Origin: Alphaproteobacteria bacterium
Lineage (GTDB): Bacteria > Pseudomonadota > Alphaproteobacteria > Rs-D84
Reading direction: 5' to 3'
DNA length: 64,000 nt
NCBI GenBank assembly: GCA_017463185.1
Contig: JAFTPS010000013.1
Span: 3,826-67,825 of the forward strand
The notes below the pieces were generated by a model. That model was given only the letters and a program-made list of their open reading frames with translations. It was not told where the DNA came from and did no database searches. Shown here in pieces: positions 8,961 through 39,958 of this stretch. Every line of letters begins with the position of its first letter. Position 1 is the stretch's first letter. A program made the translations under genes and the position numbers.

Positions 8961-9250
8961 TCCTTGTTTTTATGGGGCGGGTTTGGTAGAATTTTCTGTG
9001 AAACCATCAGGGATTGTGGTTTCGGGGCCTTAGAAAGCCTACTTTGCGCCGACACGGTGTTTGTGTCGTTCCCTACGCATAGTATGGGGCGCATTGTGCG
9101 CCATTTATTATGCACTAATCACCCGGACCTTTGTGTCGGGGTGCCGCCGGTGTATGCAACAGGGCGCATGCGCCCAAAGACCGGCGGGAACATGCAAAGT
9201 GTTTTTCTAACACCCCGACCGTCAATTCCATTGGCGGTTTTGTTTTTTAT
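8961..9250 (+). other. GC-rich, hairpin-dense non-coding segment. Candidate structured RNA or long 5' leader upstream of the pilin-like gene.
   Basis: Local GC is far above the surroundings. Several perfect or near-perfect hairpins: GAAACCA/TGGTTTC, CGACAC/GTGTCG, GGCGCATTGTGCGCC, GGGCGCATGCGCCC, and CCGCCGGT...ACCGGCGG enclosing about 30 nt. The 101-aa ORF over it looks non-coding. Confidence 0.3.
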
Positions 9251-9265
9251 ACAAAGGGGTGAAAT

Positions 9266-9628
9266 ATGAAATGTCAAAAAATGCTTGTGGGACTGGCGTT
9301 ATCATTGGTTGTGATACCGGCGTTTGCCGCGGCGAATATTGATGGACTATGTGGACTGATTGCCGAAATGCAGGGAATTTTCAAAATTCTGCGGACATTG
9401 GCATTCGCGGGGGCGGGATTTATTCTGGCCAAATATGCGTGGGAAGCAATCAGTACTGGTAAATTAAATGGTGAAGCAGAACTTATCAAAGGGGTACAGA
9501 AAACAGGTATTCCAATGCTGGTGGGGCTAATTTTGCTGTTTATGATTGGCACTATATTACAGGTGCTAAGTTCTGCTTCTGGGGCCAGTGTGTTGGGGTG
9601 CAGTGACGAGTTGTTTCAAGGATGGTAA
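9266..9628 (+). CDS. VirB2/TrbC-like type IV secretion pilin candidate.
   Basis: 120 aa. Signal peptide ending AFAAA, then two hydrophobic helices separated by a short polar loop. Size and topology are typical of VirB2 and TrbC pilins. No other T4SS genes in the window. Confidence 0.45.
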   Translation: MKCQKMLVGLALSLVVIPAFAAANIDGLCGLIAEMQGIFKILRTLAFAGAGFILAKYAWEAISTGKLNGEAELIKGVQKTGIPMLVGLILLFMIGTILQVLSSASGASVLGCSDELFQGW

Positions 9629-14339: not shown

Positions 14340-14972
14340 TTAATTTGTATAATAGCAATTGTTGCTGAATTCATATGTGCCGCTGGTATCTTGTATGGAT
14401 TGTGCGGATGGTATATAGCAGGAAGTTATTGAAGTCGCGCCACCAGATGCGGTTGTGCCATATACATCGCCGGATGATGGACAACGTGCACAAGTATTGC
14501 CGTTTTTATAATAGCCTTGGTTGCAACTAAATGTTGTGCCGCCATCACAGGTTGCGTTACTGGGGCAAATTGTGCAGCCTGTGGATGAAGATGTGGGGCT
14601 GCCATAATATCCGGTTTCGCAGGTGTAATCCTGTATTGTGTATGTGGTGCATTCGGCTGGTGTGTTGTAATCCTCTTTTTCTGGGCAGGTCGTAAATTCA
14701 ATTACGCGCCAGTTTGATGTTATAACATGTGAAGAATAATTAGTTGTTGTGGATGTTGGAACACCGCGATAGGGTAGCCATTCTTCACATTCCATCATAC
14801 ATGGGTCGTCCATTGTATACCAACCGCCTGAATCATTGATTGGTTGGCAGGCGCTGACGTCTACATAAGCGCACGGATTTATTGGGTAAAGGTTGGAATA
14901 TTGAGCGTATATGTTTTTTGTTGTAATACAGGCAATGCAAATATACGCACTTGTGATAATTTTTTTGTTCAT
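14340..14972 (-). CDS. Cysteine-rich secreted protein with C-x2-G-Y-Y repeat modules.
   Basis: Signal peptide MNKKIITSAYICIACITTKNIYA. About 26 Cys. Repeats CETGYYGSPTSSSTGCTIC and CNQGYYKNGNTCARC use the same module as the 1098-aa protein at 32840-36136. Confidence 0.55.
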   Translation of the reverse strand: MNKKIITSAYICIACITTKNIYAQYSNLYPINPCAYVDVSACQPINDSGGWYTMDDPCMMECEEWLPYRGVPTSTTTNYSSHVITSNWRVIEFTTCPEKEDYNTPAECTTYTIQDYTCETGYYGSPTSSSTGCTICPSNATCDGGTTFSCNQGYYKNGNTCARCPSSGDVYGTTASGGATSITSCYIPSAQSIQDTSGTYEFSNNCYYTN

Positions 14973-15028
14973 TTGTTCTATCTCCTGTGTTTTTTGATTA
15001 AAAGCAAAAAACCGTCAATTTTTTTGAC

Positions 15029-15107
15029 GGTCAGGAGGTTAGTAACAATCCATAGAATTGCGTGCTTATTTATGTATATCGCAACCCTCCTGACCGATGG
15101 TCAGGAG
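15029..15107. promoter_or_regulatory. Palindromic operator-like motif upstream of the Cys-rich gene: half-site GGTCAGGAGG at 15029-15038, full palindrome CCTCCTGACC-GAT-GGTCAGGAG at 15087-15107.
   Basis: Perfect 9-bp inverted repeat with a 3-bp spacer. The same palindrome recurs at 44481-44502 upstream of another secreted-protein operon. Confidence 0.5.
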
Positions 15108-15373
15108 ATTTTTTCGTCACAGACAATAAAAAAAGACGCGTTTTTGCGCCATTTTAAGTCTTGTTTGTTGACGCTATGGCAGAGGTTACTACGCCTCATC
15201 GTCAGAATACCTGACGACGTTTCTATTCTATCAAATCAAGTTTTTTTATGCAATATTGAATTTAACAAGGGATGTTGTACGGATTAAAAATTTGTCATTG
15301 TTGTGAGTAGGGTAAAATCCTAATTTTTCGCGCTTTTCAAGCGGAAATCTTATATTTTTTTCCTAGTTTTTTC

Positions 15374-31467: not shown

Positions 31468-31623
31468 GTCCGTGGGACGATAAACAAAGATTTGACTTTT
31501 GTCGTGTTTTGTATAAAATTATGCGGCAAAATAAAAATAGCCCACGATAAAAAAATCTTGGGTTTGGGTATCGGGGTGCGGGTGGACTCGCGCTTCGCAG
31601 TTAAATAAAAAGGAAAATAAAAA

Positions 31624-32001
31624 ATGGCACGTATAGCAGGTGTTAACATTCCGACAGAAAAGCGCATTGAAATTGCGTTGCAATACATTCACGGTATTGG
31701 GCCAGCAAAAGCGGCACAAATTTGTGAAGCGTTGAAATTAAAAGACGGTTTGCGCGCAAAAGATTTGACGGACGCGGATGTTATCAAAATTTCTAATTAC
31801 ATAGAAGAAAACTTTAAAGTAGAAGGTGATGTTCGTCGTGAAGTTACAATGAACATTAAACGTCTGCAGGATTTGAAAACCTATCGCGGTATTCGTCATC
31901 GTAACCGTTTGCCGGTTCGTGGTCAGCGTACACAGACAAATGCTCGTACCCGCAAGGGCAAGCGCGTGGTAGTCGCTGGTTCCGCAACCAAGGGGAAATA
32001 A
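31624..32001 (+). CDS. rpsM: 30S ribosomal protein S13.
   Basis: [26 protein letters not shown]... Confidence 0.96.
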
Positions 32002-39122: not shown

Positions 39123-39839
39123 ATGGCAACACGTAGTAAAAAATGGTGGATTATTCATTGCGGTGCTGGGGTTGTGGCGGCTGTTTTGTTGGCTGTCAGC
39201 ATAACACAGTGCAGTGGTAAAAAATCCGAACGTCACGAGAAAGAAAAAGCGCAGACAGAAGTTGCAGGTGCGGCTGAAAAATTAAATAAAGCGGCGGCAA
39301 GAATTGACAGTTTGTTAAATGTCAATCGTGGCTTGGGTCAAGATAATCGTGCCAAGGCGGATACAATTCGTATGCAACGTGATTCTATTGCGACATTGAA
39401 TGATTCAATTGTTGTGCTGAATGATTCCTTGGGGGTTGTGAACGGCCAGTTGACTGATTGTCGCAATGGCCAAAGAAAGCCGACCAAGCCGACTAAACCA
39501 ACAAAGCCATGCAAACCATGTCGCCCGGCTAAACCAACAAAGCCGGTTGTGGTAAAGCCTGACACACTTGTTGTTGTGGTCGGTCCCGATTCTGTTGCAC
39601 GTGGTGGCAATGTGCGTGTGGAAATGGACAATTCCCGCAATAATGGCAATGTTGTGATTGCGCCAACAAATGTCAATCAAACAGAAGTTGTTTTGCGCGA
39701 CGGCAGTGTAAATAATGGCAATATTGTTGTTGGCAACAATAACAATGTTGTTGTGAATAATATTGCTGATACTTTGCGTGCGTACCAGTCATCTTGTGCC
39801 AAGATAAAGGTGACAAAACGCATTGTTCGCGTCAAATAA
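39123..39839 (+). CDS. Membrane-anchored coiled-coil protein with a K-P-T repeat linker.
   Basis: N-terminal TM (WWIIHCGAGVVAAVLLAVSI). Coiled-coil segment. KPTKPTKPTKPCKPCRPAKPTKPVVVKPDT. Asn/Val-rich tail. Confidence 0.5.
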   Translation: MATRSKKWWIIHCGAGVVAAVLLAVSITQCSGKKSERHEKEKAQTEVAGAAEKLNKAAARIDSLLNVNRGLGQDNRAKADTIRMQRDSIATLNDSIVVLNDSLGVVNGQLTDCRNGQRKPTKPTKPTKPCKPCRPAKPTKPVVVKPDTLVVVVGPDSVARGGNVRVEMDNSRNNGNVVIAPTNVNQTEVVLRDGSVNNGNIVVGNNNNVVVNNIADTLRAYQSSCAKIKVTKRIVRVK

Positions 39840-39958
39840 TTTATTCATTGTTTGTCCTTTGTTTCGGTCCGCAGTTTTGCGGACTTTTTTTTATGCGTTT
39901 TTTATCTGGACAGATAACGGGGGCTGTGATAACATTTATTTGTATAGAGAGAATATAT

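Follow-up and report, generated by a model that had tools for sequence, protein, structure and literature searches.

The question raised by this locus is what a perfect palindrome does upstream of two unlinked loci for secreted proteins. In the 64,000 nt of contig JAFTPS010000013.1 (assembly GCA_017463185.1; Alphaproteobacteria, Rs-D84) that were analysed here, referred to below as the window, a 9-bp inverted repeat with a 3-bp spacer, CTCCTGACC-N3-GGTCAGGAG, occurs at 15087-15107 and at 44481-44501. A preliminary description had read it as the operator of a dimeric transcription factor, or else as a small palindromic mobile element, and had suggested a regulon of surface or secreted proteins. 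The observations behind these proposals were borne out: the two sites are the sole matches in the window with up to 3 mismatches allowed, 100 dinucleotide-preserving shuffles of the window gave no match at all, and both sites precede genes of the signal-peptide type (14972..14340 on the minus strand; 44604..44807 and 44829..46622 on the plus strand). The additional half-sites are also genuine, with a third copy, CCTCCTGACC, lying ~50 nt from each palindrome at 15029-15038 (-) and 44553-44562 (+), and with 9 matches to CCTCCTGACC in the window at one mismatch or fewer, against 0.97 expected. As for what the palindrome is, the interpretation that we consider likely, judging from the sequence, is that it forms the R1:R2 hairpin of a conserved leader RNA of ~250 nt, an attenuator-type switch, and not a protein-binding DNA site.

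When the reverse complement of the first site (copy A) was aligned to the second (copy B), the two shared 81% column identity over ~170 nt, a stretch that spans a terminator-like hairpin, the ribosome-binding site and the start codon. The homology of the two sites thus extends past the palindrome, and both face their genes in the same direction, i.e. they are copies of one oriented unit. Both copies have a strong promoter of the extended -10 type, and the ~95 nt after it end in a terminator-like hairpin. Read on the strand of the gene, the leader consists of the promoter, the helices H1, H2 and H3 (the last enclosing a hairpin, T1), an A-rich linker, the R1:R2 helix (P1), the hairpins P2 and P3, the segment R3 with the terminator T2, the Shine-Dalgarno sequence (SD) and the ATG (Table 1). 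Four of its segments alternate in polarity, R1 and R3 being anti-SD-like (CUCCUGACC) and R2 and R4 (the SD itself, CAGGAG) being SD-like.

A scan for the exact palindrome, using one genome per species, gave two populations, one of high-GC Thermoflexales/Anaerolineae metagenome-assembled genomes (MAGs) and one of ~20 loci from low-GC gut Alphaproteobacteria. The latter came from Candidatus Enterousia, from sheep, goat and other gut bins, and from a few contigs binned as Muribaculaceae or Prevotella, and in all of them the third copy lay 48-61 nt downstream, with a terminator, a ribosome-binding site and a signal-peptide open reading frame (ORF) after it. A covariance model (CM) built from 20 modules found further copies without a perfect palindrome, and a scan of metagenomes with R2 and the P2 loop as anchors contributed 38 more loci, so that the CM had 72 matches of at least 30 bits in the window and 57 related loci from gut Alphaproteobacteria MAGs and metagenomes. 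A filter-free CM scan of the window found five copies, at 9116-9259 (+), 14990-15112 (-; copy A, 119.5 bits), 44476-44603 (+; copy B, 112.1 bits), 48338-48473 (-) and 48725-48851 (+). Conservation of the leader unit extends to at least 14 species-level genomes, and eight of its helices show compensatory changes. Its position relative to genes is equally regular: 64 of 73 copies have the start of a co-oriented ORF no more than 75 nt downstream, the remaining 9 lying mostly at contig ends or being followed by another leader. The 64 ORFs have a median length of 191 aa and a median cysteine content of 7.2%, they fall into 25 BLAST clusters, and 58 of them appear to bear a signal peptide by a simple hydrophobicity rule. 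Thus the regulon of the preliminary description stands in so far as a shared control element does precede unlinked genes for secreted proteins, although neither of the mechanisms proposed for it does.

The arms of the palindrome differ between copies while their pairing is kept, so the site is conserved as a helix and not as a sequence. Compensatory changes were seen in all 9 pairs of P1, in 5 of 5 pairs of P3 and in 5 of 7 pairs of T2, values reached by 0 of 500 shuffles (a count that, the sequences being related, is not a probability, as holds for all the shuffle and permutation counts given here), and controls slid along the alignment were 30-60% paired. P2 was folded and analysed per sequence because MAFFT misaligned its stems; more than 20 different complementary outer stems occurred among 41 distinct sequences, with 0 of 20000 permutations as good. 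In the upstream part of 47 leaders, 12 of the 17 predicted pairs in H1, H2 and T1 showed compensatory changes, many of them in the 9-bp helix of H1, and the closing pair of H2 occurs as G-C, G-U and A-U. The cognate strands of H3 pair at -10.8 kcal/mol, compared to -7.7 kcal/mol for non-cognate strands, and again 0 of 20000 permutations did as well.

The same holds for the third copy. Each of the R2 classes GGUCAGGAGG, GG(G)UUGGAG(G/U), GGUUGGGGG, GGUCGGGA and GUCGGGGUG comes with a matching R1 and R3; in copy E of the window, for instance, R2 GUCGGGGUG is accompanied by R1 ACCCGGAC and R3 CACCCCGAC. The leader at L079:1938 carries a matched triple in which the helix is extended (R1 UCCAACCC, R2 GGGUUGGAGG, R3 CCUCCAACCC), and in L128:4098 R2 GGUUGGAGU is matched by R3 ACUCCAACC. 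With the segments read by hand from the raw sequence, the 1:2 duplex came to -13.9 kcal/mol for cognate and -9.9 kcal/mol for non-cognate pairs and the 2:3 duplex to -19.3 and -13.7 kcal/mol, respectively, with 0 of 100000 permutations as good in either case. Even in the CM alignment, which leans toward P1, P3 and T2 and is not fitted to 2:3, R2:R3 is 96.5% paired, and 3 of its positions show compensatory changes, besides 15 U·G pairs. This predicted antiterminator uses the GACC that opens the T2 stem. Since R1:R2 and R2:R3 share one strand and both are maintained, mutually exclusive RNA conformations are indicated. The changes that the helices tolerate are, furthermore, asymmetric between the strands, with G·U outnumbering A·C on the sense strand by 113:5 in P1, P3 and T2 taken together, by 25:7 and 145:7 in other sets, and by ~280:19 over the helix sets tested, and it follows that the functional molecule is RNA of the strand of the gene.

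The position of the palindrome relative to the promoter agrees with this. Of 47 leaders, 39 have a promoter-like site matching at least 9 of 12 positions immediately 5' of H1 (in copy B, TTGAAA-17-TATAAT matches at 11 of 12 and has the TG of an extended -10), and none has such a site between T1 and R1, i.e. just upstream of the palindrome. The palindrome lies ~115-125 nt downstream of the predicted -10. Considering the lack of a promoter between T1 and R1 and the pairing of H3 across T1, the palindrome would be transcribed by read-through, ~115-125 nt into the transcript, and H1, H2 and H3/T1 would belong to the same RNA. The idea that an internal promoter makes the upstream part (H1 to H3) a separate small RNA (sRNA) gene was dropped on the same two counts.

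These elements have the arrangement of an attenuator, with a predicted intrinsic terminator (T2, in the main class) between promoter and start codon, an antiterminator (R2:R3) that overlaps the 5' arm of this terminator and an anti-antiterminator (R1:R2) that competes with it. It can be hypothesized that, in the OFF state, R1 pairs with R2 and leaves R3 free, so that T2 forms and terminates transcription, while R3 would mask the SD in any RNA that reads through. In the ON state, R2 would pair with R3 and close a conserved three-way junction with P2 and P3, T2 would lose 4 of its ~7 bp, and transcription would run on into the gene. The predicted energies are nearly balanced between the two. For a nascent RNA ending at R3, the 2:3 state was favoured in 43 of 50 distinct leaders, by 1.9 kcal/mol, and once T2 was complete the state with P1 and T2 was favoured in 48 of the 50, by 3.6 kcal/mol; overall, the gap between the two is no wider than 2-4 kcal/mol in the 50 leaders. 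Since the balance is so narrow and the local R1:R2 helix is transcribed first, we infer that the default is OFF, with T2 terminating, and that it is reversible by a modest input. The balance would be tipped by an effector, be it a protein, a small molecule or second messenger, or an RNA, that stabilises the P2-P3 junction or captures R1.

The SD appears to be part of the same device. Among the 64 leader-controlled genes, 30 (47%) have an AGGAG, compared to 19 of 336 other long ORFs (6%) on the same DNA. In 26 of these 30 the site reads CAGGAG, compared to 1 of the 19 background sites, of which 17 read AAGGAG (Fisher p = 1e-8). The additional C copies R2 (UCAGGAG) and extends the complementarity to R3 and R1 (CUCCUG), not that to 16S rRNA. 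The SD of diverged copies tracks their own R3, as in copy E (SD GGGGUG, R3 CACCCC) and L079:1699 (SD GGGGG, R3 CCCCAACC). In minimum-energy folds of 20 full-length leaders, the SD was paired with R3 in 17, with R1 in 3 and free in none, and the predicted masking is worth -7.7 kcal/mol. The state {2:3, 1:4} is predicted to lie 3.4 kcal/mol above {1:2, T2, 3:4}. As the freed R1 can still capture the SD, it is probable that an effector, by stabilising the junction or by holding R1, is required for full activation. It can also be observed that strong SDs are enriched, in these genomes, among the very genes that would mask them.

Several explanations that do without a switch have to be set against these findings. 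The leader could be structured but constitutive, with R1:R2 and R3:SD acting as independent, fixed helices in mRNA stability, promoter damping or insulation, and with the complementarity of R2 and R3 arising as a by-product, the two helices being duplicates of each other. Such a leader would account for the full-length ground state {1:2, T2, 3:4}, in which the SD is never predicted free, and for the apparently hard-wired T1, for which no alternative pairing was found, and it has no need of an effector, which the switch reading does not name. We nevertheless regard it as unlikely, given that independent helices have no reason to change in step, and R3 tracks R2 over at least five classes, including helix extensions such as GGGUUGGAGG with CCUCCAACCC. 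Moreover, 2:3 is systematically longer and more stable than 1:2, the competing states are only 2-4 kcal/mol apart, and the overlap of T2 with R3 is precisely the 4 nt that T2 would lose to 2:3. The transcription of the palindrome from the other strand, as the terminator of an antisense transcript or sRNA, is hardly credible: a terminator scan does flag the palindrome with an opposite-strand T-run in both A and B, and the A-rich linker 5' of R1 is conserved, but G·U exceeds A·C on the sense strand in P1 as in all the other helices, a promoter for antisense transcription was not found, and such a role leaves the covariation of R3 and the SD unexplained. A tiny inverton, in which R2 and R3 are the inverted repeats that flip a promoter-like segment (TTGCGA-N17-CACAAT), would be at home upstream of surface and secreted proteins of gut bacteria, and the 10-bp inverted repeats do surround an AT-rich segment of ~50 bp. 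However, all 20 aligned modules from an orientation-agnostic genome scan, and all the CM matches, have the same orientation, and the -35-like hexamer is not conserved because it is part of the covarying P2 stem. A segment of 50 bp is also very short for recombinase synapsis, and the chance that this explanation is right seems to us practically negligible.

The two mechanisms of the preliminary description fare little better. A perfect 9-bp inverted repeat with a 3-bp spacer that is common to unlinked genes of similar type has the geometry of an operator for a dimeric transcription factor, with the half-sites as auxiliary operators, and an XRE-family regulator is itself found behind the leader in two genomes. 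An operator, however, conserves sequence and not pairing, and here the arms vary yet stay complementary, as does the third copy, which overlaps a terminator stem. Taken together with the strand asymmetry of the tolerated G·U changes and with the remoteness of the promoter, none of which adjoins the site, the covarying arms argue that the palindrome is not such an operator, and we consider that reading very improbable. We would give as little weight to a miniature inverted-repeat transposable element (MITE) or repetitive extragenic palindromic (REP) sequence that came to lie near these genes by chance. It would be in keeping with the presence of five copies in 64 kb, with the orphan or tandem leaders that have no gene, with one deletion variant (L045:415-518) and with the Thermoflexales/Anaerolineae population, where the identical 21-mer belongs to a genuinely dispersed hairpin repeat. 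Yet the alphaproteobacterial copies have their own promoter and a fixed position and orientation in 5' leaders, the window copies are all in leader or intergenic DNA, and the scatter through coding sequence that a REP-like repeat would show was not seen, no alphaproteobacterial copy having been found inside a gene; nor would a mobile repeat be expected to keep compensatory changes in so many helices across species. The Thermoflexales/Anaerolineae element shares only the 9-mer core. There, the 21-mer is the core of a GC-rich hairpin with a stem of ~20 bp (CCCCCTCCCCTCTCCTGACC...), arranged as CCCCCTCCCCT-CTCCTGACC-N3-GGTCAGGAG-AGGGGAGGGGG (e.g. L091:802, among loci L001-L116) and flanked by GCCGCC..GGCGGC hairpins; the genomes, of 62-70% GC, each carry it many times, often at the ends of contigs, and it has no third copy, P2, P3 or association with genes. 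It looks like a REP/MITE-like family that is unrelated to the leader.

What, then, weighs against a switch? All of its function is deduced from sequence. Since only loci with the exact palindrome could enter through the genome scan, and most of R2 and of the P2 loop was held fixed in the metagenome scan, the invariance of the main class is partly a product of design, and the covariation evidence rests on the diverged copies found by the CM and on the R1 and R3 variants; the relatedness of the sequences has been mentioned. Both of the low-energy states of the full-length RNA are predicted to mask the SD, so that the 2:3 helix by itself would not suffice for the ON state. In copy C and in some diverged members, no U-run follows T2 or T1, and termination cannot therefore be the universal read-out. 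The P2 loop of copy E is replaced by an unrelated hairpin, which makes a universal ligand pocket in P2 unlikely. Several leaders have no downstream gene, and the regulated genes give no metabolic clue to the effector. Our weak preference is for a protein or an RNA as the partner, or for an effector that recognises the junction. On balance, it is a tentative possibility, which we would not rate above that, that the leader represents a novel class of RNA switch that senses an effector (as a riboswitch responding to a second messenger or small molecule, or else as the target of a dedicated RNA-binding regulator) and whose four-segment toggle of SD and anti-SD mimics would place dozens of orphan Cys-rich secreted proteins under one signal and would be the main control of the extracellular proteome in the reduced-genome, uncultured gut lineage Rs-D84 (Candidatus Enterousia).

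By analogy, the logic is that of a classical attenuator (1:2, 2:3, 3:4) and of a riboswitch expression platform. As in the trp, his and pyrBI attenuators, complementary segments alternate (1:2 / 2:3 / 3:4), 2:3 would be the antiterminator and 1:2 the anti-antiterminator, and an intrinsic terminator lies just upstream of the gene. Unlike these, the leader has no conserved leader peptide across segment 1, and segment 4 is the SD of the gene, with a separate hairpin as the terminator, nested between it and segment 3. An AUG at the H1/H2 boundary is not conserved and is part of a covarying stem; candidate ORFs for a peptide across R1 were rejected, being in different frames or absent, and the GAUGA after T1 is often GACGA. 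With terminator riboswitches, above all those for second messengers such as c-di-GMP-I, which acts on surface and secreted proteins, the leader shares a structured 5' region in which a junction-closing helix competes with a terminator, and the control of many functionally diverse extracellular proteins. It differs in that, among its unpaired elements, the best conserved is a large AU-rich hairpin loop that is replaced in diverged copies, and in that it matches no Rfam family at gathering or permissive thresholds. It is further set apart from classical attenuators and riboswitch platforms by a second, apparently hard-wired terminator, T1, inside H3 and by its use at the scale of a regulon in a genome of ~1 Mb. 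Default termination, relieved by a factor that stabilises an antiterminator over the 5' arm of the terminator, is also the principle of the ribonucleic antiterminator (RAT) of BglG/LicT and of the ANTAR, PyrR and TRAP leaders, although no RAT, hexaloop pair or GAG/UAG repeat was seen in the leader by eye, no formal search having been made. Like ROSE and fourU thermometers and translational riboswitches, the leader has an anti-SD-like segment that pairs with the SD, and the C of CAGGAG extends this pairing; here, however, masking is embedded in a four-segment toggle with a terminator, and nothing points to temperature. The cuckoo/CcsR sRNAs, with their CCUCCUCCC loops, likewise carry a CCUCC-type anti-SD in Alphaproteobacteria, but they act in trans and have the motif in hairpin loops, whereas here it lies in the stems of a cis leader; the only CcsR1 match, in a permissive Rfam scan, was weak and inside a coding region.

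Other candidates were set aside. Resemblance to an integron attC site, a retron or a diversity-generating retroelement did not hold, as each leader has its own promoter and there is no reverse transcriptase or integrase nearby and no R-box. T-box-like pairing of tRNA ACCA with a UGGU in the T2 3' arm fails in copies A and B, where T2 is GACCGUC/GACGGU. An antiterminator for T1, formed by GCGUC with the T1 5' arm, is not maintained in L011 and L097, and kissing between the P2 loop and the 3' strand of H3 would involve only 5-6 A-U pairs, which is indistinguishable from chance.

The leader is an undescribed family of cis-regulatory leader RNAs, which neither an Rfam family nor a paper matched. 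At the gathering threshold, Rfam 15 gave only tRNAs and Alpha_RBS, located elsewhere, in the window and 14 related loci, and permissive scans of leaders A and B gave nothing consistent between the two. When R2 and R3 were looked for in the full text of the literature, the only papers to emerge were eukaryotic and unrelated, none of them with these sequences in a bacterial context, and a search on attenuators, Alphaproteobacteria and secreted proteins returned nothing relevant. The Alpha_RBS match, at 31568-31656 (+), scores exactly the gathering threshold of 38.0 bits in what is apparently an alphaproteobacterium; Alpha_RBS is the ribosome-binding-site leader of the alpha operon, and the family was built from gammaproteobacteria.

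Table 1. Features of the leader RNA family and of its five copies in the window.
Feature	Position	Strand	Description
H1 (family)			Transcript 5' end; variable stem with 9-bp helix, loop ~GGUGUUCC
H2 (family)			Consensus GGGGUGU.A..ACCYC
H3 (family)			GCGUCGGAAUA pairs with UAUUCnGAYG; encloses T1 in main class
T1 (family)			GC-rich hairpin then U-run, inside H3
P1 (family)			R1, 3-nt loop, R2; the palindrome
P2 (family)			Variable stem, loop ~GAAUAUAUUGAAUAA
P3 (family)			ACAAU..AUUGU
T2 (family)			5' arm GACCACC starts with last 4 nt of R3
Copy A, complete	14973..15253	-	Promoter -35 to base before ATG of 210-aa Cys-rich secreted protein (14972..14340); upstream part aligns with 46 other leaders
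Copy A promoter	15225..15253	-	TTGCAT (15253-15248), 17-nt spacer, TG-n-TAGAAT (-10 at 15230-15225)
Copy A H1	15198..15218	-	GUCGUCAG-GUAUU-CUGACGAU
Copy A H2	15182..15197	-	GAGGCGUAGUAACCUC
Copy A H3	15114..15174	-	5' strand 15174-15161, 3' strand ~15127-15114 (..UUGUCUGUGACG)
Copy A T1 with U-run	15150-15128	-	Terminator scan flags 15150-15135
Copy A P1	15087..15107	-	R1 CUCCUGACC 15107-15099, 3-nt loop, R2 GGUCAGGAG(G) 15095-15086
Copy A P2 and P3	15045..15085	-	Between R2 and R3
Copy A R3	15029..15038	-	CCUCCUGACC; can pair with R2 (putative antiterminator) or SD
Copy A T2	15005..15032	-	GACCGUCAA..UUGACGGU and U-run, from terminator scan and RNAalifold; 5' arm overlaps last 4 nt of R3
Copy A SD (R4)	14982..14987	-	CAGGAG; copy of R2 core, complementary to R3 and R1
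Copy B, complete	44330..44603	+	Promoter -35 to base before ATG of 67-aa secreted peptide (44604..44807), whose gene precedes that of the 597-aa repeat protein
Copy B upstream part	44365..44472	+	H1 44365-44386, H2 44387-44402
Copy B H3/T1		+	H3 5' strand 44411-44420, T1 44430-44459, H3 3' strand ~44462-44472
Copy B P1	44481..44502	+	R1 44481-44489, R2 44493-44502
Copy B P2, P3	44503..44546	+	P2 44503-44528, P3 44529-44546
Copy B R3, T2, SD	44553..44586	+	R3 44553-44562, T2 44559-44586; SD GGGGG 44592-44596
Copy C, diverged	48650..48848	+	CM 44.4 bits; ORF 48849..49118 next; no U-run after T2-like hairpin
Copy C segments		+	R1 CCUCUAACC 48730-48738, R2 GGUUGGAGG 48742-48750, R3 CCUCCAACC 48802-48810, SD GGAGAG 48839-48844
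Copy D, diverged	48338..48560	-	CM 30.4 bits; no convincing downstream gene
Copy D segments		-	R1 GUCCCGAC (UCCCGAC) 48469-48462, R2 GGUCGGGA 48457-48450, R3 CUCCCGACC 48386-48378, T2 48381-48354
Copy E, most diverged	8985..9265	+	CM 26.3 bits; 120-aa signal-peptide/membrane ORF 9266..9628 next
Copy E segments		+	R1 ACCCGGACC 9121-9129, R2 GUCGGGGUG 9135-9143, R3 CACCCCGACC 9211-9220
Copy E hairpins		+	Long GC-rich P2 9144-9188, P3 9189-9204, T2 9217-9248, SD GGGGUG 9256-9261

Some of the relatives are informative about the ways in which the leader varies. Two diverged leaders from different genomes, L079:1699-1825 (-) with R2 GGUUGGGGG and L128:4098-4221 (-) with R2 GGUUGGAGU, precede homologous proteins of ~120 aa of the XRE family of helix-turn-helix (HTH) proteins, and an XRE-type regulator may thus sit under the control of the same leader. 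Orphan or tandem leaders were seen at 48338-48473 (-) in the window and at L128:4345-4465, L144:310-427 and L079:1938-2062; these are complete or nearly so, and what comes next is another promoter and leader or non-coding DNA, as in L079, which has three consecutive leaders (1938, 1699, 1051). Gene loss may have left them as remnants, or they may be stand-alone RNAs. In the deletion variant at L045:415-518 (-), H1 and H2 are joined directly to an R segment (UCUCCAACC) and T2, and R2, P2 and P3 are missing, exactly the structure that direct-repeat recombination between R1 and R3 would produce.

The genes around the window copies offer some context. Neither Pfam nor NCBIfam has a family for any of the regulated proteins of the window, and the impression that the 120-aa protein behind copy E is VirB2/TrbC-like is consequently not supported. 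The 597-aa protein (44829-46622, +) downstream of copy B, likewise with no family in either database, is made up largely of about a dozen tandem repeats of ~24 aa with the motif IPxxLFxGIxGAP. Its neighbour, a 1297-aa protein (39794-43687, +), has a weak N-terminal ankyrin match, below the Pfam threshold, and a long C-terminal region that gives the impression, and only that, of an outer-membrane or autotransporter-like domain. Beside copies C and D lie a tRNA gene (47871-47941, -) and a 48-aa ORF (MTEKLLTPNQLAENLGIKPFTLLQYRMNGKGPKYIKLGHLV...; 48107-48253, +), which resembles a truncated HTH of the AlpA/excisionase type; together they suggest an integration site or the remnant of an island next to these divergent copies. 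A protein of the choloylglycine (bile-salt) hydrolase family with a signal peptide is encoded at 46646-47725 (-) (Pfam CBAH, E = 2.4e-64) and fits a gut habitat. Candidatus Enterousia and the order Rs-D84 are uncultured gut bacteria with genomes of ~0.75-1.0 Mb that are without most biosynthetic pathways (PMC12306168), and they presumably depend on other organisms.

For annotation, the lesson of this locus is that an RNA hairpin far downstream of the promoter can present itself as a perfect palindrome in front of genes. The leader adds an unusually well-covarying orphan family to the candidate effector-sensing RNAs, and it is a switch candidate that is ready for mutagenesis: if the switch is real, a change in R1 such as CUCCUGACC to CUGGAGACC would give read-through of T2. 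The covariance model, for its part, provides a sequence handle with which the putative interaction proteome of these bacteria could be listed from metagenomes. The window holds five leader copies in 64 kb, and, to extrapolate, if such a density were typical, one RNA device would stand in front of a large share of those secreted proteins of this lineage that are rich in Cys and belong to no family.

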